This document shows, in pieces, positions 4,151 through 19,376 of a DNA stretch of 20,000 nt. Origin of the DNA: an uncultured virus (IMG/VR IMGVR_UViG_3300031673_000024) (Duplodnaviria; Heunggongvirae; Uroviricota; Caudoviricetes); IMG/VR virus record IMGVR_UViG_3300031673_000024; one strand, given 5' to 3'. The first letter of the stretch is position 1. Every line of letters starts with the position of its first letter. The position numbers and the translations under genes were made by a program. The notes beneath the pieces were generated by a model. It searched no databases, was not told the DNA's origin, and saw only the letters and a program-made list of their open reading frames with translations.

Positions 4151-4183
4151 GGAGAAAGCCGGGAGTACGACCCGGCTTTCTCC
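4151..4183 (-). terminator. 13-bp perfect hairpin downstream of nrdJ, probable intrinsic terminator
   Basis: GGAGAAAGCCGGG-agtacga-CCCGGCTTTCTCC, 21 nt after the nrdJ stop. The U-tract is short. Confidence 0.6.
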
Positions 4184-4204: not shown

Positions 4205-6862
4205 TCAGCCGCAGCCGGTTGTGTCCCCGCAGTTGTCGCACTTGTGGCACGAACCTGCACGAACAGTCATGTGACCACAAGCAAGGCATGGAGGACCAGA
4301 AACAACCCGCCGACCCTCGCGCACTGGGACACTGGGTTTGGCAACAGAGGCGGAAGGTGATCCGGGCTCTGCGGTGGTCCTCATCTCGACGATCCTCGCA
4401 ATGTAGTCGAGCAGCGACGTAGCCGAGGGAACATCCGGGTTGCCCGTGAACCCAGCAGGCTCGAACGAGGTGTGCTTGAACTTCTCAGTGAGGGTGTCCA
4501 CAGGGATACCCCACTGAATCGCAATCGAGAACAGCGTCGCCCAGCCGTCGAGGAGACCGTTGAGAGTCGATCCCTGCTTGGAGACGTTCACGAACACTTC
4601 ACCAAGCTGTCCGTCCGGGTAGTACCCGAGCGTCAGGTAGCCGTTATGCCCGTTGAGTCCGAACTTGTGTACGGATGCCATACGGTCGTTAGGCATCGGA
4701 CGGCGGTGAAGCTCCCCAGCCGCCACAGAACGCGGAGCGGTCTCCGCGTCGACGTTGAGAGGCTGGCTCTCCTTGCAGCCGTCACGGTAGATGGCAATCG
4801 CCTTCAAGCCCATGCGCCACGCTTCCATGTACATCTGCTTGACGTCCTCCACCGTGGACTCGCTGGGCATGTTCACGGTCTTGCTGATAGCGCCAGACAA
4901 GAAAGGCTGACAGGCAGCCATCATGTTCACATGACCCATAGCCGAGATCGACCTATCACCGCGTTTAGGCTTGAGGGAGCAGTCGAAAACCGCCAGGTCC
5001 TTGTCCTTGATATGCGGAGAACCCTCGATGGTGTCGTTCGCTTCGATGTACGCGATGATGTCAGCCACATTCTCGGCGGAGTAGCCGATGTTACGCAAGG
5101 CCATACCCACGCCCTGGTTGACGATCTTCATGCTCCCGCCGCCGACGAGCTTCTTGTACTTGACGAGGGCGAGGTCAGGCTCGATGCCGGTTGTGTCGCA
5201 ATCCATCATGAACGAGATCGTGCCTGTCGGAGCGAGAACACTGGCCTGCGCGTTGCGCATTCCAGTGCTATTGGCGTACGTGATGGCAGCCTCCCACTCA
5301 TCATGGGCCTCGGTGAAGATGTCCGAGAACATGGAACGGCTGGCGTGGTCGTCGTTTGCTGCCAGATGCATCTTCAGCACTTCCGTCATCGGCTCCCGAT
5401 TGCGGAAGAAGCCCTCGAAAGCCCCGACCTTCTCGGCGATCTGACCACTCATCCGGTAAGAGGTAGCAGACATGAGCGAGGTGATCGATCCAGCTAGGTC
5501 ACGACCCTTGGTGCTGTTGTAGGGCAGACCGAGAGACATGAGCAGGGCTCCCAGGTTGGCGAAGCCGATACCCAATGTGCGGTACTTCTTCGCCTCTCTG
5601 GTGATGTTCTCCGTGGGGAAGCCCGAGAAGGAGATGAGCGTCTCCTGCGCGAGAATAGTAAACTCCACACCAGCCTTGAAGGCGTCGACGTCGAACGCCC
5701 CATCATCCTTACGGAACTTCATCAAGTTAAGAGAAGCAAGGTTACATGCCGAGTTGTCGAGGAACATGAACTCCGAACATGGGTTCGATGCCACGATCTG
5801 ACCGTCCGCCGAGCACGTGTGCCACTCGTTCACGGTATCGTGAAACTGGAGGCCAGGGTCGCCACATGCCCAAGCAGCCTCAGCAATCTTGCCGAAAAGA
5901 TCGCGTGCATTGACCATACGGGCTACGCCACCATCAGGCACACGCGACTTGAGGCCCCAAGAGGACCCCTCCTCGACCGCCTTCATAAAGGCGTCGCTGA
6001 TACGAACCGAGTTGTTAGCGTTCTGCCAAGGAGCGAGGTCGTAGGCACCGCCTTCCTTGTTGAACTCGGGAGAGAAGCCAGCGGCGATGAGAGCCTGGAC
6101 AACCTTCTCGGCCTCCACCTTCGTCATCACGAACGCTTCAATGTCTGGGTGGTCGTCGTTCATGACGAGCATCTTGGCTGCGCGTCGCGTCTTGCCTCCC
6201 GACTTGATCGCAGCGGCGCTGCGGTCCCATCCCAAGGCAAACGACAGCGGCCCGGAGGCGTAGCCGCCGCCCGACAGTCGGGCGTTCTTCTCGCGGATGC
6301 GGGAGATGTTCACCCCTGCCCCGGAACCCTTGCGGAAGACGTAGCCTTCTTCGGTGGCGAGGTTGAGGATCGACTCCATTGTGTCGTCGACACTCAGGAT
6401 GAAGCAGGCGCTCGACTGCGGGTTCTCTTCTGCCCCGACGTTGAACCAGACAGGCGAGTTGAACGCCATCATCTGGTTGAGGCACATGAAGCGAAGCTCG
6501 TCTTCGAGAATCTTCCCAGCATCATCGGACAGATACCGGTTCTCTACGGCTGCGGTGGCGATGGTGACGACGACGCGGTCGATCAGTTGACGGACAGAGG
6601 ACTCGCGCTTCTCCCCGTGGCCACGGAAATACTTGGAGGCGACGATGTTCGTAGCGTTCTGCGACCAGAACTTGGGTACCTCGACACCGTACTGCTCGAA
6701 GATGATCTCCCCGTCGAGGTCCTTCATGACGACGTCGCGCATCTCCCATTCGACCTCGTCGTAGGGTGATGTCGTCGTAGTGAAGTAGCGCTTGAGGGGG
6801 AGCCGCTTGGCTTTGACAGAAGTAGAAGAAGTGGGAACAGTAGCCGTAGCGGCGTCCAACAT
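4205..6862 (-). CDS. nrdJ: Adenosylcobalamin (B12)-dependent class II ribonucleotide reductase
   Basis: 885 aa. Motifs WSQNATNIVASKYF, FNSPVWFN, PQSSACFI, KSGGKTRRAAKM, active-site ASNPCSEF, ACNLASLNL, APTGTIS and GAISKTVNMP. C-terminal TSCPD-type domain and Zn ribbon ending CLACG...CHKCDNCGDTTGCG. GAGGG RBS. Confidence 0.96.
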   Translation of the reverse strand: MLDAATATVPTSSTSVKAKRLPLKRYFTTTTSPYDEVEWEMRDVVMKDLDGEIIFEQYGVEVPKFWSQNATNIVASKYFRGHGEKRESSVRQLIDRVVVTIATAAVENRYLSDDAGKILEDELRFMCLNQMMAFNSPVWFNVGAEENPQSSACFILSVDDTMESILNLATEEGYVFRKGSGAGVNISRIREKNARLSGGGYASGPLSFALGWDRSAAAIKSGGKTRRAAKMLVMNDDHPDIEAFVMTKVEAEKVVQALIAAGFSPEFNKEGGAYDLAPWQNANNSVRISDAFMKAVEEGSSWGLKSRVPDGGVARMVNARDLFGKIAEAAWACGDPGLQFHDTVNEWHTCSADGQIVASNPCSEFMFLDNSACNLASLNLMKFRKDDGAFDVDAFKAGVEFTILAQETLISFSGFPTENITREAKKYRTLGIGFANLGALLMSLGLPYNSTKGRDLAGSITSLMSATSYRMSGQIAEKVGAFEGFFRNREPMTEVLKMHLAANDDHASRSMFSDIFTEAHDEWEAAITYANSTGMRNAQASVLAPTGTISFMMDCDTTGIEPDLALVKYKKLVGGGSMKIVNQGVGMALRNIGYSAENVADIIAYIEANDTIEGSPHIKDKDLAVFDCSLKPKRGDRSISAMGHVNMMAACQPFLSGAISKTVNMPSESTVEDVKQMYMEAWRMGLKAIAIYRDGCKESQPLNVDAETAPRSVAAGELHRRPMPNDRMASVHKFGLNGHNGYLTLGYYPDGQLGEVFVNVSKQGSTLNGLLDGWATLFSIAIQWGIPVDTLTEKFKHTSFEPAGFTGNPDVPSATSLLDYIARIVEMRTTAEPGSPSASVAKPSVPVREGRRVVSGPPCLACGHMTVRAGSCHKCDNCGDTTGCG

Positions 6863-8609: not shown

Positions 8610-9764
8610 TCAGTCGCCGACCAGGTTGAAGCCCCGAATAAACACCCCCGCCGTCACGGCTGGAACCTCGATAGTAACGCCAAGCGAAAATGGAGGATTA
8701 GCGTCGTCGTAGTTTCCCAGGACGAACGTACCAGCAGGACTCGATCCTGGGTCTGTGGCGATGACGGGGCCAGACACCTTGTTCGGTGTCGAGGACAACT
8801 CAGTCCTATCCAGCGTGTACACGTTGTAAGGATGGGTGCTCAAGCTCACGCTAGCAAGGCTAGCGAGGTCGGCGAAGACTTCGATCCGCTTGGGGAGAGG
8901 GCGCGGCGGGAGCGGAATACGGAACTGGTACGTCTGGATACCGACGCCAGCGGAGTTGACGATCTGAAGACCGACGTTCTCCGGCTCACGTACGTCCCAG
9001 GTAACCCCTGCCTCAGAGCCCGGAGCAATCCCGTTGTCGCTGATGCGTACCGAGGTCGCAGACACATAGGTCAGGATCTCGAACCAGCCGTTGTTGTTCC
9101 CCGTGGCATTGGAAACGAGAAGGAAGCGACCCACGTCACTTGTCTGCATCCCTACGAGGCCAGTGACATCGATCTGACTCGCGATCGTAGCTCCTGATGC
9201 GCTCAGAGTCGCCGACGCCGTTCCACTACGTAGCGAATGGCTCTGCTGTGTCGCCGTGATGTTTACACCGCGAGACACGTCACATGCCTGTGGGAACGGG
9301 GCCGGGAGGAACCCGTCCTCGATCGCCTCCAATAGTGAACCAGCCTGGAGAGTCGGCGGACGGCTGAGCATGTCTGCTGTCAACGGTCCCGCACCCGTAT
9401 GGCGGATCCAGATCAACGCCAGCGAGTTCGGGTTGGGGTCGCCCTCACGCCCGAGAATACCAGCACGCAACGTGTAGAAGGCGGAGGAACCACCCGTCGC
9501 CTGGATGTCGTCATGGTCGGCGGTGATGGTGTAGTCCGTAGCCACGCCCGGGGTAGGTACCGTCACCTGCGTAACAGCAGTCTCACCAACCAGAACACCG
9601 TTCGGGAGAAGGAACGTCCCCGCTGAAAGCTCAAGCAGGGTACCGCTGACGACGGTGGGGACAAATCCCTCGTAGATGCCAGGAGTGAAGAGAGCCGTTG
9701 TGAGCTTCTTCGTCCTGCCCTGCGTTAGGAGCGCACCGAAATCGTAGACACGGGATTGAGTCAT
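8610..9764 (-). CDS. Putative virion structural protein (tail/baseplate/fibre-type, beta-rich)
   Basis: 384 aa, rich in T/S/G/V/P. N-terminal 'TPGIYEGF' motif is typical of phage tail/baseplate proteins. Shares an ~80-aa domain with the 55..756 protein. Confidence 0.6.
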   Translation of the reverse strand: MTQSRVYDFGALLTQGRTKKLTTALFTPGIYEGFVPTVVSGTLLELSAGTFLLPNGVLVGETAVTQVTVPTPGVATDYTITADHDDIQATGGSSAFYTLRAGILGREGDPNPNSLALIWIRHTGAGPLTADMLSRPPTLQAGSLLEAIEDGFLPAPFPQACDVSRGVNITATQQSHSLRSGTASATLSASGATIASQIDVTGLVGMQTSDVGRFLLVSNATGNNNGWFEILTYVSATSVRISDNGIAPGSEAGVTWDVREPENVGLQIVNSAGVGIQTYQFRIPLPPRPLPKRIEVFADLASLASVSLSTHPYNVYTLDRTELSSTPNKVSGPVIATDPGSSPAGTFVLGNYDDANPPFSLGVTIEVPAVTAGVFIRGFNLVGD

Positions 9765-9767
9765 CCG

Positions 9768-10208
9768 TCAGCCCTTCACGCCTTCAAGCAGCTTCTTGAG
9801 CTTGCCTGCGATGGTCTCAAGCTCGTCGGCCAGCGCCTGGGCCTCATCGTCTTCCATCTTCGTCGTCTTGGCCTTACGAAGGGCAGCGATGGTCTGACCA
9901 CCAATGCCCATCACCTTCTTCAAGGCGTTGACAACCGACTTGGCGTCATCAGGCAGCTTGTCATCCGACTTCTGCTTTGCTTGAACCAGGGCACGCTTGT
10001 CGAGGAGATGCTCCACCTTGGCGAGAGCGTAGATGACGCCGCTCTGCTTTTGGAGTGAGGACCTGAGGATGTTCTTTGCGATGTTGGTGACAAGCCCGAG
10101 GTCACCGTCATCGAAATCCGCTTCCTTCTTGCCCCGCTGAGCGGACACAGTTTTCTTGGCCTTCTTCCAAGCCTTCTCTTCTTCGGTGGTGTTAACCCAA
10201 GCGGGCAT
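9768..10208 (-). CDS. Hypothetical helical phage protein, probably head-associated
   Basis: 146 aa, AGGAG RBS. N-terminal 'MPAWV...EEKAWKKAKK...LVTNIAKNI' resembles a small domain recurrent in phage head regions. Helical C-terminus. Confidence 0.75.
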   Translation of the reverse strand: MPAWVNTTEEEKAWKKAKKTVSAQRGKKEADFDDGDLGLVTNIAKNILRSSLQKQSGVIYALAKVEHLLDKRALVQAKQKSDDKLPDDAKSVVNALKKVMGIGGQTIAALRKAKTTKMEDDEAQALADELETIAGKLKKLLEGVKG

Positions 10209-10378
10209 GGAAGTCTCCTAACGAACCGGGCCAGGCGCGCGCAAGCAGCCTACCCCTCAGTATGCGTTCGAGGGGTCGGAGTCACGTAAGCGTCAACTCA
10301 ACGGTTTACATCAAGTATTTATTAGTACCCGCCGCGCGGCCCGGAAGGACGTAGAACCTAGTCTCACAGCCTCGACAC

Positions 10379-10416
10379 AAAGAAAAACGGGAGCCAAGTG
10401 GCTCCCGTTTTTCTTT
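10379..10416 (-). terminator. Intrinsic terminator after the major capsid gene (potentially bidirectional)
   Basis: AAAGAAAAACGGGAGCC-aagt-GGCTCCCGTTTTTCTTT: 17-bp inverted repeat with U-tracts on both strands, 16 nt after the capsid stop. Confidence 0.9.
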
Positions 10417-10432
10417 TGCTTCTAGTAACTTA

Positions 10433-11545
10433 CTAGACGCGGGTGCCGATGGCGACGGCGCGGTCCTGAACGTGGAGAGACTCCAAGCCCATGAGGTAGA
10501 AGCCGCGGCGCGGCGCACCCAATGGATAATGGTTGATCTCTGTCGACTGGATCTCGCGACGAACACCACGCTGGCCGAGGGCGATCGGGGTGCCGAGAGC
10601 GAAGACCTCACCCGGCTGCAACACCTGGAGGGTGTCGTAGCGGAAGCCGTCGGTGATCAGGTTCATGTCGAGCAGGGCGCCGAGCTTGCCCTCCATGATC
10701 AACTGGTACTTGTGAACGGGCTCCCACCACGTCGTGAACGACGGGTCGGCGATCATGTCGTCCCAGATGTCGAAGGAGAACAGGAGGTGAGCGGCGGGGA
10801 TGCCGTTCGACAGGACCTGCGTGCGGAGCGCCGTGAGAACCTGCGGCGTGAACGTCGCGAAGCTCACCGGAGCGTTGAAGACACCAGCCGTGGCGAGGAG
10901 CAGGCTTCGCAGAATGCGATCCTGGCGAACCATGACCGCTTCGAGCGCGTCCTGGAACTTCTCGTCAAGGAACTCCGGGCCTGCCTGAGCAAGCTCGCGC
11001 TCCTCGATGAGCACCTGGCTCTGGAGGTAGTAGTCCTGGGGGTAGATGTACGCCTGCTCGACGATCTGTGCGATACCTTCGCCATCGTTGATGACTTGGA
11101 ACGCGGTCACGTCCTTGCGGCGCAGCTTGATGCGGTTGTCCACACCGTCGACGACGTCCTTGCGGGCGACGACCTGCGGTGTGAAGCCCTGACGGTTCAG
11201 GGTTTCCCACACATCCTCGGCGAACACTTCGCCCATGAGCTTCATGCGATCATCGCCAGAACCGAAGGCGCTGACGAGTTCCTCGTGACGCTCCTTCTTG
11301 GCGCTGAGCTTGGCGCGCTCATCGGTGAAGCCTGCGTCACTGCCGATCTGGCCGTTCTGAACCATCGCGTGGAGCGCGTTGATCTTCTGGGCGAGGTCTT
11401 TGGTGTCGTAGGCGTTGATCTCACCAGAGGCGTCGGTCATGCGACCACCCGCTGCCTGGATCTGACCGTTGCTCTTCTTTGCGAACGCGGGCATGTGCCC
11501 CATCACGGGCTCCCGCGTCGCCAAATGGAAGTCCTGTCGAAGCAT
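10433..11545 (-). CDS. Major capsid protein (HK97 fold, jumbo-phage type)
   Basis: 370 aa, strongly GC3-biased codons, strong AAGGAG RBS, followed by a terminator. Lies last in the portal-protease-scaffold series. Motifs GEINAYDTKDL, ETLNRQGF, EKFQDALEAVMVRQDR and EGKLGALLDMNLITDGFR recall capsid proteins of PaBG/Lu11/RSL1/Y3-like jumbo myoviruses (from recall, unverified). Confidence 0.85.
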   Translation of the reverse strand: MLRQDFHLATREPVMGHMPAFAKKSNGQIQAAGGRMTDASGEINAYDTKDLAQKINALHAMVQNGQIGSDAGFTDERAKLSAKKERHEELVSAFGSGDDRMKLMGEVFAEDVWETLNRQGFTPQVVARKDVVDGVDNRIKLRRKDVTAFQVINDGEGIAQIVEQAYIYPQDYYLQSQVLIEERELAQAGPEFLDEKFQDALEAVMVRQDRILRSLLLATAGVFNAPVSFATFTPQVLTALRTQVLSNGIPAAHLLFSFDIWDDMIADPSFTTWWEPVHKYQLIMEGKLGALLDMNLITDGFRYDTLQVLQPGEVFALGTPIALGQRGVRREIQSTEINHYPLGAPRRGFYLMGLESLHVQDRAVAIGTRV

Positions 11546-11730
11546 GGACTTTCTCCTTCTTGTAGGGGCCTTTCCTCGACTCAGTTTGGTTCGGCCCCAG
11601 GTGGAAAAAGAGGACGAGTCGAGGAATGTGTTTTTGGGAAGTTGGGCGGGGAGCCCCTGTTAGGTGGTGAGGCGGGGAACAAACCCCGCACTCACCTAGA
11701 GGTTGTGAAGTTCAGGAGAACTTCAACCTC
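11546..11730 (-). promoter_or_regulatory. Structured 5' leader of the major capsid gene (several hairpins plus an anti-Shine-Dalgarno pairing)
   Basis: Stems at 11699-11730, 11665-11696 and 11572-11582/11616-11626. Loop segments 11593-11598 and 11603-11610 are complementary to 11565-11570 and to the RBS region. Confidence 0.6.
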
Positions 11731-11839
11731 ACTTCTTCTTGCCCTTCTTGAGCTGAGCCTTGCCACGGCCACCCTTCACGGGGGCGCGACGGCTGTGACC
11801 CTTGACGGTCGGCGAACGGCTGTACTTCTTGACTTTCAT
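11729..11839 (-). CDS. 36-aa highly basic peptide (MKVKKYSRSPTVKGHSRRAPVKGGRGKAQLKKGKKK), putative nucleic-acid-binding core protein
   Basis: Translated by hand; not in the ORF track. GAGGAG RBS 7 nt before ATG. Codons are mostly G/C-ending, as in the capsid gene. 15 of 36 residues are K/R and none are acidic. Confidence 0.85.
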   Translation of the reverse strand: MKVKKYSRSPTVKGHSRRAPVKGGRGKAQLKKGKKK

Positions 11840-11924
11840 GATGAACTCCTCGCGGTGTGGCGACGTGTGTGTGTGTTTGGTTATTGTCTAGGTAGTGCGG
11901 GAGACCGCGAGGTAGTCCAGGAGT

Positions 11925-11954
11925 GAGCGGCGGTGAGTCAACTCACCGCCGCTC
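11925..11954. other. 14-bp perfect inverted repeat after the charge-block gene (mRNA processing/stabilising hairpin or plus-strand terminator)
   Basis: GAGCGGCGGTGAGT-ca-ACTCACCGCCGCTC. TTT follows only on the plus strand. Confidence 0.6.
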
Positions 11955-11963
11955 TTTGATCAG

Positions 11964-13412
11964 CTACTTCTTCGCCGGGGACTTCTTCTTCTTCGGTGCC
12001 CGCTTCTCCTTCATGGAGGCGAGGCGCCGGTCGTCGAGCTTGGCGAGGTCGGCAGGGTGCTTCATGCCGTACTTCTCCTTGTAAGCCTTGCGGCTCTGCG
12101 GAGACGGACGGTTCGACGTGAACCAGTACGAACCGAGGAACTTGCCCTTGGAGTCGTAGGTGTTGAAGTAGAACTTCTTGCGGACCTTCTTGCGTCCCTT
12201 GGGCGTGTTGACCGAGCCACGCATGCCCTTCTTGCTCTTCTTCATCTCGGTGCGGAAACGACGGCGCTTCCGATTGATCGTGGCCCGACGCTTCGCCTTG
12301 GCTCGCGCGGACTTGCTCATCTTCGGGCGCTTCTTCGCCGAGACCGTGCGGTTGTCCGTAACGAAGTCACGGCGCTCCTTCGGGCTCATGCTGGCGAGAA
12401 GCTCGCGAACCTGCGCAACCGAGAGGTACTCGGAAGCCTCAGCGTCCTCGATGTAGTCCTCAGGCATCTCCTCATCGTCGATACTCTCAGGAGCCATTTC
12501 GAGGGCGTCGGGGGCGTCGGTATCGACTTCTGGTTCGAGATCACTGGGTCCTTCGCTTCCGAAGTCCATCTCGACATCCGTCGCGATCAGTCGGCTCAGA
12601 CGCTTCTGAACGCGGGACAGGCGCGAGGAGATGCGGCGGCGAGCCGAACCTTCGAGCAGACCTTCCTTCTCCAGAGCAGCAAGTTCGTCTTCCGAGAGCG
12701 TCTCCATGTCGCCTTCGTCATCGTCGTCATCGTCGTCATCGCCCGAACCATCGACGTCGTCTCCGTCCTCGGAGTCGTCGTCCTCCTCGGAGTCGTCCTC
12801 TTCGGCAGATTCGTCTTCCTCGGAGTCGTCTTCCTCGTCAGCGGGCTCATCTTCCTCTTCCTCTTCCTCGGAGTCGTCATCTTCGGCAGATTCGTCTTCC
12901 TCGGAGTCGTCTTCCTCGGAGTCTTCCTCGGAGTCTTCCTCGTCAGCGGGCTCATCTTCCTCTTCCTCTTCCTCGGCGGCGGCACGCAAGGCCGCGGCTG
13001 CAAGGTCAAGGGACGAAAGAGCGAGTTCCTCATCGTCCATGTCGTCGTCGCCGAGCATGTCCATCGGCTCCATGTCGTCGTCGCCGAGCATGTCCATCGG
13101 CTCCATGTCGTCGTCGCCCATGTCGTCGTCGAGCATCATGTCCATCGGATCTTCGTCCAGCATGTCCATGTCGTCGTCGCCGAGCATGTCTTCCATGCCC
13201 TCTTCCATCATCTCCTCTTCGGGAGACTCCTCGGAATCGAGCATCATTTCGTCCTCTTCCATCGCCCGGATCTCCGACTTGATGTCGCGGAGTTCGGACA
13301 TGGCGGCGCGGATCTCCTTGCGCTTCGCCGGAGAGGCGGTCTTCATAGCCGCGCGAAGCCCGCTCATTGCCTCGCGGATCTTCCGGCTGGTCTGAGCCTG
13401 GATACGGTTCAT
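11964..13412 (-). CDS. Low-complexity charge-block protein (basic N-terminus, very acidic repeats, Lys/Arg-rich C-terminus), probable internal head/core protein
   Basis: 482 aa from ATG 13412 (MNRIQAQ..., AAGGAG RBS). The track's TTG start at 13493 falls inside a hairpin loop. Located between the decoration and capsid genes. Confidence 0.8.
   Translation of the reverse strand: MNRIQAQTSRKIREAMSGLRAAMKTASPAKRKEIRAAMSELRDIKSEIRAMEEDEMMLDSEESPEEEMMEEGMEDMLGDDDMDMLDEDPMDMMLDDDMGDDDMEPMDMLGDDDMEPMDMLGDDDMDDEELALSSLDLAAAALRAAAEEEEEEDEPADEEDSEEDSEEDDSEEDESAEDDDSEEEEEEDEPADEEDDSEEDESAEEDDSEEDDDSEDGDDVDGSGDDDDDDDDEGDMETLSEDELAALEKEGLLEGSARRRISSRLSRVQKRLSRLIATDVEMDFGSEGPSDLEPEVDTDAPDALEMAPESIDDEEMPEDYIEDAEASEYLSVAQVRELLASMSPKERRDFVTDNRTVSAKKRPKMSKSARAKAKRRATINRKRRRFRTEMKKSKKGMRGSVNTPKGRKKVRKKFYFNTYDSKGKFLGSYWFTSNRPSPQSRKAYKEKYGMKHPADLAKLDDRRLASMKEKRAPKKKKSPAKK
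12760..12976 (-). repeat. Composite coding repeats (EEEEEEDEPADEED x2, SEEDESAE x2, DSEE units)
   Basis: GTCTTCCTCGTCAGCGGGCTCATCTTCCTCTTCCTCTTCCTCGG occurs twice, with additional 12-15 bp TCTTCCTCGGAG units. Confidence 0.85.
13036..13118 (-). repeat. 33-bp tandem repeat, 2.5 copies (encodes DDDMEPMDMLG)
   Basis: TCCATGTCGTCGTCGCCGAGCATGTCCATCGGC at 13036-13068 and 13069-13101, partial at 13102-13118, with degenerate copies beyond. Confidence 0.9.
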
Positions 13413-13474
13413 TTCTTCTTGCTCCTTGAGAAAACTGCGGGTTTCGTGCTGTGAAAGGGGGGAGGGGGAAAGAC

Positions 13475-13513
13475 GAGTAAGGGTCTCCGGCAAAAAACCG
13501 GAGACCCTTACTC
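13475..13513 (-). terminator. 16-bp perfect hairpin after the decoration gene (weak terminator/attenuator or processing site)
   Basis: GAGTAAGGGTCTCCGG-caaaaaa-CCGGAGACCCTTACTC. On the minus strand it is followed by the pyrimidine run GTCTTTCCCCCTCCCCCCTTTC. Confidence 0.6.
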
Positions 13514-13519
13514 AGTCAA

Positions 13520-14260
13520 TCAGCCAGGCAGGTTGCACTCGAAGCCGATGAAGGCTTGGGTGATGCCGGGGGTCTGCTTGTTGGTGGGCTCCAGCACGAG
13601 CGTGCCGAAGTCCGTGCCCGCGCCGCCCGTGAGGACAGCATCGCCAGCCGCGCCGGAGGTCACGACCGTGTTCGCATCCACGTCCCACAGCGATGACGTG
13701 TCGAAGCACGAAGACACGAACTTGCAGTTGCCGTAGCCTACAGTGACCTGGGCGTAGAGCGTCTCTGCACCGTTGTTCACCGAGCGACGGCCACCGCGAC
13801 GCTGAAGCTCAGCGGCGGAGATGGCGTACTGGTAGACGATGGTGAAGTTGACGTCGGTGATGGCCGCGTCAGCCGTGAGCACGTTGGCGGTGAGGCCAAG
13901 CTGGCCCGCGCCGGGCGCACCAGCCACGACCACGATGGTCGCGCCCGTGTCGCTGTTGTAGGCACGGATGACGCCAACCGCGGTAGGTGTCTCCTTGAGG
14001 GTCGTGGTGAGCGGAGCCGCCGCCGGAACCGAGAGGTCCTCCCGGAGGGGAACGGTGGCCTGGTTGGTCTCCGACAGCCAGAGGATGCCGACGACGCGCT
14101 CGCCAGCCCCTGCGGCAGACGGAGCCACGATACGCTCACCGGCTGCGTTGAAGCCGGCGTCGACCATCACCATGCCGCGCTCCAGCGCGCCAGCGTAGGT
14201 CGGGTCGAGAAGGACGTCCTTCTTGTGTTCGATGATGCATTCGTTCAGTTGGAGTGCCAT
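13520..14260 (-). CDS. Probable capsid decoration/cement (minor capsid) protein
   Basis: 246 aa, A/G/T/V-rich, highly biased codons, between scaffold and capsid genes. 'ERGMVMV...VAPSAAGAGERVVGIL' fits the start of a beta-tulip decoration protein. Confidence 0.6.
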   Translation of the reverse strand: MALQLNECIIEHKKDVLLDPTYAGALERGMVMVDAGFNAAGERIVAPSAAGAGERVVGILWLSETNQATVPLREDLSVPAAAPLTTTLKETPTAVGVIRAYNSDTGATIVVVAGAPGAGQLGLTANVLTADAAITDVNFTIVYQYAISAAELQRRGGRRSVNNGAETLYAQVTVGYGNCKFVSSCFDTSSLWDVDANTVVTSGAAGDAVLTGGAGTDFGTLVLEPTNKQTPGITQAFIGFECNLPG

Positions 14261-14358
14261 TTTGGCTTTTCCTTTGTCCGCTTAATGCGAACGGTGAGAG
14301 AGAAGAAGTGATGGTCGTTGTAGTTGGCGCTAGGTAGGCGTCTGATCTCTCACCGAGA

Positions 14359-15606
14359 TCAGCGGAAGCCGCCGAAGCGGTTACGGAAGTTGGTCTTCGA
14401 CTCGGCATCCACCGGCTCGGGGGAAGCGCGACGAACCGAAGCCGAGACGTTGACGTCACTGTTGTGCGACGCCTGGAGGGGAACCGCGCGCGCAGCCATC
14501 TGGTTGGCGAGGTTCTGGTCGTAGTTGGGGTTCGTAGCTGCGTGGCTACGCTCGCTCGGAAGCGGGCGAACACGCTTGCCGGCAGCCTGCATCGCAGAGA
14601 GGATCTCGGAGAGAGCCTCAGCCGAGAGGTTGCTCCACTCCTCAGCCTTGTCGAGGAGACCAGCGAAGGTCTTGATTCCCTGCTGGAAGAAGGCGTCATC
14701 GACCATCTCGGCGGCAGTTGCCTCCGGGAGACCCGCGCTGCGGATGCTCACGATGAGCGCGTCCTTGAGCGGGTTCTGGACGATGAAGTTGTTGGCCGAA
14801 GCCTCCAGCACATGGCCGAGGGTTCCGATGTAGCGCGCCTTCACCTGCGAGACCTGCTGACGCAGGGCTTCCTGGGTGGAGGCTGCGAGGTTCGCCTTGA
14901 TCTGCGCGATCTTCTTGTTCGCGTCGACCTTGGCCACGTAGGTCTTGGCCTTCACGGCGCTCAGGGCAGCCATGAGTCCGTGCTTTTTGATTCCGTCGAT
15001 GACCGAGCGTGCGAAGTCGTGCGAGACGAAGTGCGCTGCGATCTCCTTGGCGTGGTCCTGGTCCTTCAGGGACACCTTGGCGATCGGGTCGCCGTTGGCG
15101 AACAGAACCCAGTGCGCGCCTGCCTCCATGACCTCAGCAGCGGTCGATGCTTCCTCGGGAACGAAGGGAACGAGGTCGAAGTTGACTTCCTCGTCCTCAG
15201 CGAACTCGGCTGGATCGGTGACTGCCATGATGGCGTCTTCGAGGCCCGGCGGGATGAGGATGCCGGGCTGGTAGCTCGCGTCATCGCCAGCGTCGCCCTT
15301 GCCCTCTTCGATGGCCTTCTCCAACTCGGGGGGAAGGGAGATGCCGATGTCCTCAGCGCCGAGGTTGGCGTTGTCAGCCGGGCTCAGCGTGGTGCCCTCG
15401 AAGCCGCCATTCGGGGGCGCGTTCTGGTCGAGAGCCCTGACATTCCTCGCCGCCTTGACGGGGCGCTTGGTCGCCGACTTCTTCACACCAGTCTTCTCAG
15501 CCTTCGCGGTCGCCTTGCGCTTCGCCATACGCGCTTCGCGCTTCTCTGCCATCGCGAGAACCTTCTTCGATGCGCTCATGAGATCGTTCTTTTTCGTGTT
15601 CTTCAT
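14359..15606 (-). CDS. Probable scaffolding/prohead core protein
   Basis: 415 aa. Basic N-terminus, acidic linker, long helical/coiled-coil region and an aromatic C-terminus (NFRNRFGGFR). Located downstream of the protease and upstream of the capsid gene, with highly biased codons. Confidence 0.65.
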   Translation of the reverse strand: MKNTKKNDLMSASKKVLAMAEKREARMAKRKATAKAEKTGVKKSATKRPVKAARNVRALDQNAPPNGGFEGTTLSPADNANLGAEDIGISLPPELEKAIEEGKGDAGDDASYQPGILIPPGLEDAIMAVTDPAEFAEDEEVNFDLVPFVPEEASTAAEVMEAGAHWVLFANGDPIAKVSLKDQDHAKEIAAHFVSHDFARSVIDGIKKHGLMAALSAVKAKTYVAKVDANKKIAQIKANLAASTQEALRQQVSQVKARYIGTLGHVLEASANNFIVQNPLKDALIVSIRSAGLPEATAAEMVDDAFFQQGIKTFAGLLDKAEEWSNLSAEALSEILSAMQAAGKRVRPLPSERSHAATNPNYDQNLANQMAARAVPLQASHNSDVNVSASVRRASPEPVDAESKTNFRNRFGGFR

Positions 15607-15879
15607 CTGTTGGTCCCTCGTGCCATAACCGATAGGTCTGGCGTTAATGAAGCCTCAGTGTCGTGGATTGTTCACCTTCACCGCGGTGCGGGAGGCGCTG
15701 TTAAAGTAGACCCGAGGCTTCTGTTCGCGTAGCCGGGTGCTACAGGGCTAGAGTTGCAACGCTACAAATCCTCTGCCTGGATTTGTTCAAGCGGAGCCCA
15801 GATCAATGCCCATGAGCTTCTGCTCAATCGCGATGTTACAGGCCCATAAAGGGAACATTACAAATGATAGAAAATGGTC

Positions 15880-16556: not shown

Positions 16557-17378
16557 TTACTCCCCGAACGGCTTCTGCTGCGTCTGAAAGGCGCCATAGT
16601 TCGCCGGGTCACCTACCGAAGACGACTCGAAGAAGTGGTAGTCGTAGACCGCGTCGTACACGAGGCTTCCTTTGAGGACCTGCCCCTTGCCCATGAACTT
16701 GCCCTGGACACGCTGCTGCTGCGGTCCCTTCATGCAGTCACAGGCCGACGGATAGCTCGTATCCCAGCGATGCCCGCAGTTTGCACAGTCCATGGAAGCG
16801 GTCCACGCGCTCATGCTGTGGCCACGACGACGACCAGAAAGAACATCATCAGCAAGCTGACTGTCCTTCGTACGGTCGAACGCCTTGAGGATCATGGTGA
16901 ACCAGCGGCCATTCACCTGCTTCATCGAAGCGTCGAGGATGACACCCTTCGCCTTCGTGTTGTCATCATGCTGGTGCTCGTAAAACACCGGCTTACCCAC
17001 GAACGTGCGATACGCTTGAACACCGAACTTGGGAACCCAGTCAACCAACCGAGAGGTCAGGAAGCAGTCCATGTTACGGTTGGGCACATCGCCTTCAACG
17101 ATGGGCACCTCAGCGATGACGTAGTCTCGGATGTCCGCCGACAGGCAGTAGGCGTCAGCCGCAGCGGGGAGCCAGGACACGTCCACCACAGAGCTTCGGT
17201 CGAGGGCCGAGGCGCTTGCCATCAGCATCCGACCAGTCCCACGATCTAGGTCGTATCCCAGACGGAAAGACTCCTCGGTGTTGATCTGATCCGCGTAGGA
17301 ATGGAGGATGTGGGAGTCTTTGGGGTTCGCTGTAGCAGCCGACAGAGCAGAACCTTCGGGGATGATGAGAGAGGTCAT
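16557..17378 (-). CDS. Prohead maturation protease (HK97/assemblin-like serine protease fold) with Zn-finger insertion
   Basis: 273 aa directly after the portal. Motifs PNRNMDCF, FVGKPVFYEH (candidate catalytic His), KAKGVILDA, GHSMSA (candidate catalytic Ser), CANCG...CDC and FFESSSVGDPA. Confidence 0.8.
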   Translation of the reverse strand: MTSLIIPEGSALSAATANPKDSHILHSYADQINTEESFRLGYDLDRGTGRMLMASASALDRSSVVDVSWLPAAADAYCLSADIRDYVIAEVPIVEGDVPNRNMDCFLTSRLVDWVPKFGVQAYRTFVGKPVFYEHQHDDNTKAKGVILDASMKQVNGRWFTMILKAFDRTKDSQLADDVLSGRRRGHSMSAWTASMDCANCGHRWDTSYPSACDCMKGPQQQRVQGKFMGKGQVLKGSLVYDAVYDYHFFESSSVGDPANYGAFQTQQKPFGE

Positions 17379-17381
17379 AGG

Positions 17382-19376
17382 TCAGACTGCCTTCCCGGCT
17401 TTGTTCAGGGTATCGAAATCCCGATTTAGCCGTGCGCGGTCCACTGAGAGGTCTTCTCGTGGTGTCCCTGACAGTTTGGTATCCGTAGGGACATAGACGC
17501 GGGAAGCGTCCGCCTTGAAGGAAGCTGACTCCACCACACCCTCCGACAACTCCTTCGCCTTTTTCTTCTCCTTGTCGGTCAACTCATTGACATCGTACCC
17601 GTCCTCGTCTTCCGCGAAGTCGAGTTTCGACACGCCCTTCTGGAGCTTCTCGATCTCGGCAGAAAGCTCATCGGGCTCCATGTCGCCAGCGCCCTCTTGA
17701 AGAGTCATGATCTGCTGCTTCAACTGCTGGAACTTCATAGCCTCCAGGCGGAAGTCCAGGTCAGCAACCGCCGTCCGCATCCGGTCGGCTAGTTCGCCAC
17801 CACCAAGGGTACGGTTCCACTCGGCTGCCCCGACAGGCAAGCCCTTCTCTTCCATCTTGTCGAGAAGGTCGGCACGGGCCATATCCGCCGTGGAGTCAAG
17901 GCTCTTGTGGAAGATGAGCGTAGGAAGGATGAGTTCGTGGTCGTCGTCGTCGATGATGATCCGGTGAGCAAGCTCTGCGGGGGTGCGGCGCCGGAAGTTG
18001 TGGACGACAGCCAAAGCACGGAAGAACTTCTGGATGAGGAAGGTCTCCACCACGTACTTCCGGTGTGCCTTCAGGCGCTCCATGAAGATCGTGGGGGCCG
18101 TTGTCGTATCAATGTTCATATCCCCCATAAGGAGTGATTCAGAAACACCGAACATCTTGAGCTTGGCTTCCTGCAAGAAGCTCCACTCGTCCTGCCACTT
18201 CCACATCTCAGCGAGCGATCCACGGATCTGATTGAAGTCAACGTCGTAACGTGTGCCGATGGTTGACGACACGCTGTCTTCTTCGGCGGCGGTGTAAGCA
18301 GACACCAAAGCATCGATCTGCTCGGGGGTAGGCTCCCACTGCTCGGAGCCAACGCGAATCTGCGTAATGGGTCCGGCACGGCGGCGGTGCCCGGTCAACG
18401 TCGCGTTGATGAGGCTCTTCTCAAGGCCCCACAATGGGATGTTGCGTACGTAGAAGGAGGTACCGTAGATGTCGCTGAAGAACGACCGGCGAGGAAGGTA
18501 CGCCGTAGTCGTTGGATCGAGCGGGATCGGCTGGTTCTGGCCGAGAGCGTCGAGAAGCTCCTTCGGCATCCCCTTACGGGAGTCGACGTCACGCTCGTCC
18601 TGGCTTTTTACCCACGCCTGCATAGCAGGAGAAGGTACAAGGTCGAGCTTAGGCATGAAGCCAGTGCGTGGGATCTCACCGATGTTCACGTAGTCAGCGT
18701 CGTGGATGACCATGTCAGTCCAGATGCCCAACTCCGCGTTGAGGATAAGCTGGATGATGACGCGCCCGATGACTAGGTACTCCTTGGTGATGTCCTCCAA
18801 GTACCTGTCGACACGTACAGCATCCTTGGCCGCCCAATAGGTATCGATTATGGTTGGGTCCCGGATGCCGGCGATGTCGAAGTCTGACCAGCACATCTCC
18901 GCAATGGTCTCGACCACGGGGCCTTCGATGACCCCGCGGTTGAACATGATGCGGAACATGCGGTTCTGTGAACGCGGGTCCTGTGGGATCCAGTCTTCAG
19001 CGACCGTGCCTCGGCTGAGGTCGTCGTAGACAGGGTTGTACCGGTCGACCGTGGCCCCAGAGGAACCAAAGCCGCCGCTCCCGCCGAAGCCACCAAGACC
19101 ACCGCTCCCGCCGCTACTCCCACCACTACCAAAGGAGCCAACAGCAGAGACTGTATTTGCTTCTACTACAGTCTTATTCTTCTGATTGAGACGCTCGTGC
19201 ATCGTAGCTGCATGCACGTGCCCATCTTCGTCTTTCACAAATCCGCGACGGGACTTCAGGCCGCTTACAACACCGGCTCCGGCGTCGTTGTTGGCACTGT
19301 TTCCTTTACCGGTAGGACGGTTGACACTCTCAATGAGTGAAGAAACAACACGCTGGCGACGACCAATACGGAGCAT
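17382..19376 (-). CDS. Portal protein
   Basis: 664 aa, first gene of the head series. Portal-like features: ITKEYLVIGRV, YLPRR...DIYGTS, LEKSLINATL...RRAGPI, QIRVGSEQWEPTPEQIDAL, KLKMFGVSESLLMG and FMERLKAHRKYV. Low-complexity N- and C-terminal extensions. Confidence 0.8.
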   Translation of the reverse strand: MLRIGRRQRVVSSLIESVNRPTGKGNSANNDAGAGVVSGLKSRRGFVKDEDGHVHAATMHERLNQKNKTVVEANTVSAVGSFGSGGSSGGSGGLGGFGGSGGFGSSGATVDRYNPVYDDLSRGTVAEDWIPQDPRSQNRMFRIMFNRGVIEGPVVETIAEMCWSDFDIAGIRDPTIIDTYWAAKDAVRVDRYLEDITKEYLVIGRVIIQLILNAELGIWTDMVIHDADYVNIGEIPRTGFMPKLDLVPSPAMQAWVKSQDERDVDSRKGMPKELLDALGQNQPIPLDPTTTAYLPRRSFFSDIYGTSFYVRNIPLWGLEKSLINATLTGHRRRAGPITQIRVGSEQWEPTPEQIDALVSAYTAAEEDSVSSTIGTRYDVDFNQIRGSLAEMWKWQDEWSFLQEAKLKMFGVSESLLMGDMNIDTTTAPTIFMERLKAHRKYVVETFLIQKFFRALAVVHNFRRRTPAELAHRIIIDDDDHELILPTLIFHKSLDSTADMARADLLDKMEEKGLPVGAAEWNRTLGGGELADRMRTAVADLDFRLEAMKFQQLKQQIMTLQEGAGDMEPDELSAEIEKLQKGVSKLDFAEDEDGYDVNELTDKEKKKAKELSEGVVESASFKADASRVYVPTDTKLSGTPREDLSVDRARLNRDFDTLNKAGKAV

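Follow-up and report, generated by a model that had tools for sequence, protein, structure and literature searches.

A conserved, possibly pseudoknotted RNA element in the capsid gene leader of an uncultivated jumbo-type phage

The window, i.e. the whole 20,000-nucleotide (nt) stretch of DNA analysed here, belongs to the IMG/VR record IMGVR_UViG_3300031673_000024 of an uncultivated jumbo-type phage. Its minus strand carries a gene encoding the major head (capsid) protein of 370 amino acids (aa) at positions 10433-11545, with the AUG start codon at 11545-11543. An initial annotation of this DNA had placed a structured leader in front of a capsid gene, and the similarity of the predicted product to phrog_2522 (E = 6.8e-40) bears this assignment out. 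The leader contains an RNA element that is a new motif of a familiar kind, so far represented by seven sequences. Judging from predicted structures, we give about an even chance to the reading that this element is a clade-specific, cis-acting module within the untranslated region at the 5′ end (5′-UTR) of the capsid mRNA, which likely folds into a knot and would set the translation or the stability of that mRNA. The capsid protein is the most abundantly made protein of the phage, and little is known of how large uncultivated phages set its output.

All parts of the leader lie on the minus strand and are described here in the direction of the capsid mRNA. The 5′ end is formed by a conserved block, TAACAGGGGCUCCCCGCCCA (11643-11662), which holds the word TAACAG and a possible mini-hairpin, GGGC-UCCCC-GCCC (11656-11644). 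It is followed by an A/C-rich, G-poor spacer, ACUUCCCAAAAACACA (11627-11642), and by helix 1, whose arms are UUCCUCGACUC (11626-11616) and GAGUCGAGGAA (11582-11572). The helix 1 loop of 33 nt consists of a pyrimidine-rich segment, L1 (11599-11615), the hexamer GGGGCC (11598-11593), which is the 5′ strand of the proposed helix 2, and an A/C-rich segment, L2 (GAACCAAACU, 11583-11592), reaching to the 3′ arm. Only one nucleotide (A11571) separates helix 1 from GGCCCC (11570-11565), the 3′ strand of helix 2. The core of the Shine-Dalgarno (SD) sequence, GGAG (11553-11556), is situated 7 nt before the AUG, within the ribosome-binding site (RBS) GGAGAAAG (11556-11549). Every string quoted in the initial annotation was found on the minus strand between 11640 and 11546; the interval given there (11546-11640) encloses the quoted parts and misses the conserved 5′ part of the leader, TAACAGGGG...CCCA (11662-11643).

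Six full leaders were compared: those of the window, of four IMG/VR contigs (L001-L004) and of a contig belonging to a metagenome-assembled genome (L077). A seventh leader (L005), from a Joint Genome Institute (JGI) metagenome contig, is cut off by the contig end. The capsid proteins of the five relatives with full leaders are 80-85% identical. Four-fold degenerate sites in invariant codons (n = 81) are nearly saturated with changes (11% invariant, mean pairwise identity 0.47), so conservation within the non-coding leader reflects selection. Such conservation is concentrated in a few blocks. The 9-mer TAACAGGGG, which occurs once per contig, as well as the hexamers GGGGCC and GGCCCC are invariant in all six full leaders, and the same leaders all carry GGAG 3-8 nt past GGCCCC; both GGCCCC and GGAG are also present in L005. 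The distance from TAACAGGGG to helix 1 varies between 18 and 28 nt in the six leaders, and its variable part is A/C-rich in each of them. A small open reading frame (ORF) spanning the leader (11581-11691) was considered and rejected, because the length differences among the related leaders are not multiples of three.

Helix 1 was described in the initial annotation as a perfect stem of 11 base pairs (bp), which is exactly what the quoted strings form; G11615 and U11583 could add a twelfth pair, of the G-U type. The window has five distinct perfect inverted repeats whose arms are 11 bp or longer and whose loops span 3-60 nt, helix 1 among them; the same search of 200 dinucleotide shuffles gave a mean of 0.53 seeds and any seed at all in 31.5% of cases. 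In an alignment of five sequences (L002 was excluded, as MAFFT misaligned it), 4 of the 12 pairs are changed on both sides and 98.3% of the cells are paired. This covariation score was reached by 1 of 500 shuffles, and when the partner was slid by 1-3 columns as a control, pairing fell to 41.6-58.8%. L002 itself forms a helix of 13 bp with a 1-nt bulge and one G-U pair, and L005 carries yet another version of the 3′ arm (CUGGGACGAGGAA). The four pairs at the foot of the helix, UUCC/GGAA, are invariant. By this comparative evidence helix 1 is a real, selected RNA helix of 11-13 bp, kept by compensatory changes.

The strand on which the structure acts is indicated by the G-U pairs. Those found in helix 1 of L003, L077 and L002 fit the sense strand only and correspond to A-C mismatches on the other strand, so the selected structure is the RNA of the capsid-sense strand. 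This bears on a different explanation, in which the inverted repeats bind a protein as a DNA-level operator or promoter and no RNA structure is involved. The invariant blocks, including the GGGGCC/GGCCCC inverted repeat, could indeed be protein half-sites, and no sigma-70-type promoter (-35 and -10 hexamers spaced by 16-18 nt) was detected in the region 9500-14500. However, apart from the pairing retained through G-U, the gap between the two hexamers ranges from 22 to 28 bp, and two repeats that interlock are unsuited to a dimeric DNA binder. An operator acting as DNA is therefore extremely improbable.

In each of the six full leaders, nucleotides in the loop of helix 1 (28-33 nt across the leaders) can pair with sequence beyond the hairpin, as expected of an H-type pseudoknot: GGGGCC in the loop perfectly matches GGCCCC just behind the stem, while the neighbouring parts of the loop vary in length and sequence. 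By chance, a perfect 6-mer match between a 33-nt loop and the flank following the stem arose in 0.7% of cases when the loop was shuffled, and in 3.1% when loop/flank pairs were drawn at random from the window. The linker between helix 1 and GGCCCC is a single A, except in L077, where it reads UA (2 nt); L005 reads GGAA-A-GGCCCC. Segment L1 (9-17 nt) is not conserved in sequence. Segment L2 measures 9-13 nt and follows the length of the stem, the stem/L2 values being 11/10, 11/10, 12/11, 11/10, 11/9 and 13/13. An A/C-rich composition and a length that tracks the stem are expected if the L2 strand runs along helix 1, which argues indirectly in favour of the knot. We consider the GGGGCC/GGCCCC pseudoknot plausible, at roughly even odds. 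Of the pseudoknot proposed in the initial annotation, the conserved knot-type layout stands in six of six leaders; its second helix, being invariant, shows no covariation, and a rival nested partner for GGCCCC exists.

Several observations weigh against the proposed knotted, cis-acting module. The six pairs of helix 2 never vary in the five aligned sequences, and L002 has the same hexamers, so no covariation can speak for this helix. In classical H-type pseudoknots the second stem's 5′ strand is joined to the 3′ strand of stem 1 by 0-1 nt, and a longer last loop crosses stem 1. The leaders depart from this layout, with a middle junction of 9-13 nt and a last loop of 1-2 nt, and the knot could form only with stem 2 placed in a stack beneath the base of stem 1 or lying alongside it. 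It would also be tight in L002, where an L1 of 9 nt faces a stem of 13 bp. The plain minimum free energy (MFE) fold of the region is ordinary (z = -1.2). A nested fold that includes helix 1 and one that has helix 2 in its place are near-isoenergetic in four of the five leaders compared (L003 was not counted), being 0.2-1.4 kcal/mol apart; in the window, for example, their energies are -30.2 and -31.0 kcal/mol, respectively, and in L004 they are -24.2 and -23.6 kcal/mol. In L077 the two differ by 4.2 kcal/mol. The nested consensus calculated by RNAalifold for five leaders pairs GGCCCC with an upstream GGGGCU. Only six full sequences are available, all from one clade. Finally, the statements on function all rest on prediction, and the 5′ end of the transcript is inferred.

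The RNAalifold result corresponds to an explanation without any pseudoknot. GGCCCC would pair with GGGGCU of the TAACAGGGGCU block in a nested long-range helix that encloses the spacer and helix 1, and the GGGGCC of the loop would serve as a single-stranded recognition site for a protein or RNA. The consensus of the five leaders gives exactly this helix, with 6-7 pairs that are all kept; both G-blocks are invariant, and the L002 version of the upstream block, GGGGUU, can still pair by means of G-U. Nevertheless, the nested helix likewise lacks covariation and gives no account of the L2 length that tracks the stem. It requires the TAACAG block to be inside the RNA, yet this word recurs before many genes in the manner of a promoter or processing signal. 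Moreover, the C-to-U and G-to-A changes of L002 fit better as one compensated pair of the mini-hairpin, in which GGGC/GCCC is replaced by GGGU...ACCC in a single event. For these reasons we regard the nested long-range helix as rather unlikely.

In the initial annotation, a further helix was proposed to occlude the SD sequence, formed by CUUUUUCC (11610-11603) of L1 and GGAGAAAG (11556-11549) of the RBS. This claim did not hold up across the clade. The predicted energy of the loop-to-RBS duplex is -9.6 kcal/mol in the window, -10.3 in L001, -11.0 in L003, -6.6 in L004, -5.6 in L077 and -0.7 in L002, i.e. the pairing is absent in the last of these and weak in the two before it. When the order of nucleotides in L1 was shuffled, the RBS was paired as well or better in 34% (window), 20% (L001), 93% (L002), 2.6% (L003), 20% (L004) and 22% (L077) of cases, so that the natural loop surpassed 95% of the shuffled ones in one of six leaders (L003) and was no better than a shuffled loop in the other five. 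The match in the window can be attributed to a pyrimidine-rich loop facing a purine-rich RBS, of which it is a by-product. Conserved anti-SD pairing, which is what defines an SD-sequestering switch, be it a riboswitch expression platform or an RNA thermometer, was thus not found.

These results also affect the possibility of a two-state switch, in which helix 1 would alternate with a helix 2 extended into the SD-hiding loop-to-RBS helix, the state being selected by a protein or a ligand. In the window and in L001 the MFE fold is exactly helix 2 plus the anti-SD helix, near-isoenergetic with the helix 1 fold, and the RBS is predicted to be less accessible in the fold with helix 2 only. Given the fate of the anti-SD pairing, an L1 segment that varies in length and sequence, and the small number of conserved unpaired nucleotides that could form a ligand pocket, such a switch is highly doubtful. 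Nor was any known riboswitch detected, in line with the initial annotation, which had recognised none, and the same applies to the leaders, small RNAs and other families of Rfam. A search of positions 11000-12200 with Rfam 15, at E values of up to 10, gave five chance-level hits of at most 15.3 bits, as compared with thresholds of 49.5-95.5 bits, and no match at the gathering score was obtained for five related loci. In the accessibility predictions, the region from the SD to the AUG was more open with helix 1 formed and both hexamers sequestered than it was with helix 2 only; this applied to 11 of 12 comparisons, and the remaining one was a tie.

The word TAACAG at the 5′ end of the leader is not restricted to the capsid gene. 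Over about 216 kb the sense strand has 20 copies of it and the antisense strand only 4. Downstream of 13 of the 20 sense copies, an SD sequence together with the start of a long ORF follows within 160 nt, compared with 244 of 2000 random positions (binomial P ~4e-8). A second conserved copy (15698-15703, minus strand, in the region 15600-15760) precedes, by 91 nt, a 415-aa ORF of the head module (14359-15606). It recurs at the equivalent place in the related contigs G001, G002 and G003, and in all four head modules a covarying GUAGC...GCUAC hairpin stands before it. For the capsid leader, the nucleotide similarity of the window to G001 starts exactly at the T of TAACAGGGG (11662). From the strand bias and the recurrence before genes, TAACAG can most likely be taken as a signal shared by many genes, either a short promoter core or one for processing. 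The capsid leader is the longest, with 92-111 nt after TAACAG, and the helix 1/helix 2 module is a capsid-specific insert which makes it so. No phage RNA polymerase was identified with PHROGs among the 78 ORFs of three partial contigs (29-48% complete).

A very short AACA-containing word before many genes is also a feature of the nvRNAP late promoters of jumbo phage AR9, which are given as AACA-(6N)-T(A/G), the last base being the transcription start (PMC5312081). Unlike in AR9, the leader reads AACA-GGGGCU-CC (AACA-GGGGUU-AA in L002), and T(A/G) is missing at that spacing. After the second TAACAG of G001 (L269, 8214-8330) come a small hairpin, GCUGC-CCAGA-GCAGC, and then a spacer rich in A and C, a layout that matches the 5′ part of the capsid leader. 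In the window the second copy has ACAGAAGCC..GUCUAC ahead of it.

The capsid gene appears as an expression unit of its own, delimited by upstream hairpins on one side and by a strong intrinsic terminator on the other (10379-10416, minus strand; perfect stem with an A-tract before and a U-tract after it). A GC-rich hairpin without a U-tract, GGUGAGUGCGGGG-UUUGUU-CCCCGCCUCACC (11666-11696, minus strand), lies just upstream of the leader and is preceded by a second hairpin (11730-11699, minus strand). Each relative also has a hairpin just before TAACAG, differing in sequence. The element might function at the level of the transcript, either in anti-termination or as a site of processing or stabilisation, by which a monocistronic capsid mRNA would be cut free from a long head-operon transcript and protected. 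The hairpins lacking U-tracts and the sharp onset of similarity to relatives at TAACAG are in keeping with this. However, helix 1, with its 11-13 bp, is shorter than typical substrates of RNase III, neither helix 1 nor helix 2 is followed by the U-tract of an intrinsic terminator or attenuator, and the fixed short distance between GGCCCC and the SD (3-8 nt) points to the RBS as the target. We therefore judge a transcript-level function very unlikely, in spite of the precedent of 201phi2-1 and phiKZ, whose capsid genes have three consecutive promoters, two of which are closely followed by terminators in 201phi2-1 (PMC11512511). A search for terminator-like sites in 9500-14500 returned three, all on the plus strand and none within 11546-11700.

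The most likely role of the element, as far as predicted structures can tell, is that of a leader module which keeps the capsid RBS open and the mRNA stable, and which is perhaps read by a factor at its invariant junction. In the proposed sequence of events, the TAACAG signal, probably a promoter core or processing site, would set the 5′ end of the transcript, followed by the small GC hairpin and the A/C-rich single-stranded spacer. Helix 1 would be complete during transcription before GGCCCC and the RBS emerge, and would thus form first. The GGGGCC of its loop would then capture GGCCCC, yielding a compact, non-classical pseudoknot that ends 3-8 nt before the SD. Such a knot would lock away G/C-rich segments and segments resembling the SD or anti-SD (UUCCUC, GAGGAA), so that the purine-rich RBS could stay single-stranded. 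Positioned at the upstream edge of the ribosome footprint, the folded block may stabilise the mRNA and set the rate of initiation. The invariant junction, UUCC/GGAA-A-GGCCCC/GGGGCC, could bind a trans-acting factor.

A more far-reaching version would make the knot a translational operator read by a phage factor, for instance in a feedback from head assembly through the acidic scaffold-like protein or the small basic peptide encoded just before the leader. Loop-to-downstream pairing would then be a recurrent feature, evolved independently in the capsid leaders of this whole jumbo-phage lineage; we think this distinctly unlikely. Should the knot turn out to bind a factor as an operator, virion assembly would gain a new example of control after transcription. 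A leader that does no more than stabilise and insulate could be used as a compact 5′-UTR module for high expression. In either case it is a concrete RNA element, in which the helix is defined, two blocks are invariant and the distance to the RBS is fixed, accompanied by TAACAG as a candidate short upstream signal of this phage group.

Full-text literature searches on pseudoknots and leaders of phage capsid genes revealed no description of such an element. The nearest analogues are the gene 32 operator of T4 and RB69 and the capsid upstream regions of 201phi2-1 and phiKZ, with their multiple promoters and terminators. In the rpsO leader of Escherichia coli, the SD and AUG region forms part of a pseudoknot to which the ribosomal protein S15 lends stability. 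The capsid leader resembles this and other ribosomal-protein leaders in having a predicted knot next to the RBS, where the 30S footprint has its upstream edge, in equilibrium with nested hairpins; unlike in rpsO, the RBS is not part of the predicted knot, for which there is no known binding protein. The leader of T7 gene 10 has a short hairpin at its very 5′ end that is not known to take part in loop-to-flank pairing, and its promoter is a 23-bp consensus repeated throughout the genome. In both phages the capsid unit has an upstream signal of its own, its mRNA carries a hairpin close to the 5′ end and a purine-rich RBS free of structure, and a strong terminator comes after the gene, whereas the element described here is longer and contains a candidate loop-to-flank pairing.

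In the gene 32 operator of phages T4 and RB69, a pseudoknot occupies the 5′ side of the mRNA leader and the RBS lies behind it in a stretch with less structure, an arrangement like the one proposed here; in T4 the operator is gene-specific (PMC535899). The T4 knot comprises about 28 nt, with more than 40 nt behind it that contain UUAAA/UAAA repeats bound cooperatively by gp32 (PMC535899). In contrast, the capsid leader has a stem of 11-13 bp, a loop of 28-33 nt and only 14-19 nt between the knot and the AUG, and the corresponding stretch of the window, UACAAGAAGGAGAAAGUCC, is free of UUAAA and UAAA, so that no long tract of such repeats is present. The gene is also different, encoding a capsid protein with no known repressor instead of a single-stranded DNA-binding protein. 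An elaborate control region upstream of the capsid gene, with structured 5′-UTR elements, is a trait shared with the giant phages 201phi2-1 and phiKZ, and small RNAs derived from 5′-UTRs have been reported upstream of other genes of 201phi2-1 (PMC11512511). Unlike here, the accessible portion of that report describes no pseudoknot, and the capsid proteins are of an unrelated lineage (PMC11512511).

The distribution of the element was examined by motif scans of 2.9 million viral contigs and with a covariance model, R1, built with helix 1 only. When IMG/VR was scanned for GGGGCC...GGAAAGGCCCC, 65 stretches matched, but true occurrences were limited to the four capsid contigs, while the scan for TAACAGGGG...GGAA...GGCCCC gave six, i.e. 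the same four contigs and two chance matches. With the 5′ block alone, one capsid leader was present among the 82 matches listed. With R1, the window and every related contig each had exactly one strong match, and a single noise hit was obtained (L246, E 0.5) among 32 distant capsid loci. Inspection by eye found the GGGGCC/GGCCCC leader in none of 35 distant capsid loci (25-54% identity). The element is confined to a narrow clade, in which it occurs as a single copy per contig and only before the capsid gene.

Relatives of the leader were not found among phage records with blastn. The capsid protein matched 96 phage records in tblastn, every one with less than 60% identity, and the closest named relatives, with about 30% identity, are the capsid proteins of jumbo phages such as BcepSauron, phiRSL1 and the Erwinia and Dickeya phages. 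A metagenome scan yielded only L005, with its incomplete leader, and one duplicate. Contigs from public reads added no new variants, as X4 and X6 span the leader without any difference; the X5 contigs overlap only parts of its flanks, and the RNA run contributed none. About 30 further clusters of capsid proteins, at 72% identity or more, exist, along with a group at 55-68%.

Candidate structures are also present in the leaders of two other capsid clades. In a second clade, whose capsid proteins are about 40% identical, the leader contains a covarying hairpin of 5-8 bp (CCUAGC/GCUAGG, CCUCCCCU/GGGGGAGG or CCUCGUU/AACGAGG). Its loop holds GAGC, and an invariant ACGCUCA is found 23-43 nt downstream, forming a candidate loop-to-downstream pairing (L231, 1002-1050; L232, 984-1052; L233, L234 and L243, 1027-1076; L236, 972-1022). 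A third clade (L225-L230 and L245) has, some 70-110 nt before the capsid AUG, the succession AGAAGC..AGU(C/A)U, UUYAGGAG-loop-CUCCU, CCCAAA and an A/C-rich leader, which resembles the arrangement TAACAGGGGC-loop-GCCC-AAC...CCCAAAAACACA of the window. In L257 and L258 (1201-2366) the capsid match begins only at residue 114 (54% identity), with unrelated GC-rich sequence upstream, and the gene may be split or interrupted there.

The genes on the same strand upstream of the capsid gene encode a portal protein (17382-19376), a head protease (16557-17378) and a very acidic protein of 509 aa (11964-13493, minus strand). The latter has long Asp/Glu-rich repeats and a Lys/Arg-rich tail; a family search with it gave no match, and it may be a scaffold. 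Between this gene and the capsid leader, the window contains a very basic ORF of 36 aa (11729-11839, minus strand), whereas in L002-L004 the conserved C-terminal region of the acidic gene extends up to the intergenic hairpins. The four perfect hairpins of at least 11 bp found in the window besides helix 1 (10379-10416, 4151-4183, 11925-11954 and 13475-13513) are each located just 3′ of a minus-strand gene, and at the last three of them U-tracts are weak or missing. No tRNA or transfer-messenger RNA (tmRNA) gene was detected in the window. Directly behind the capsid gene, G002 (L276, 17621-19543) and G003 (L278, 17302-19134) carry a gene for an HNH homing endonuclease of about 610-640 aa, at a place occupied in the window by an ORF of 146 aa. 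The strand block of the head genes also includes a gene for a class II (B12-dependent) ribonucleotide reductase with a C-terminal TSCPD domain (4205-6862, minus strand).

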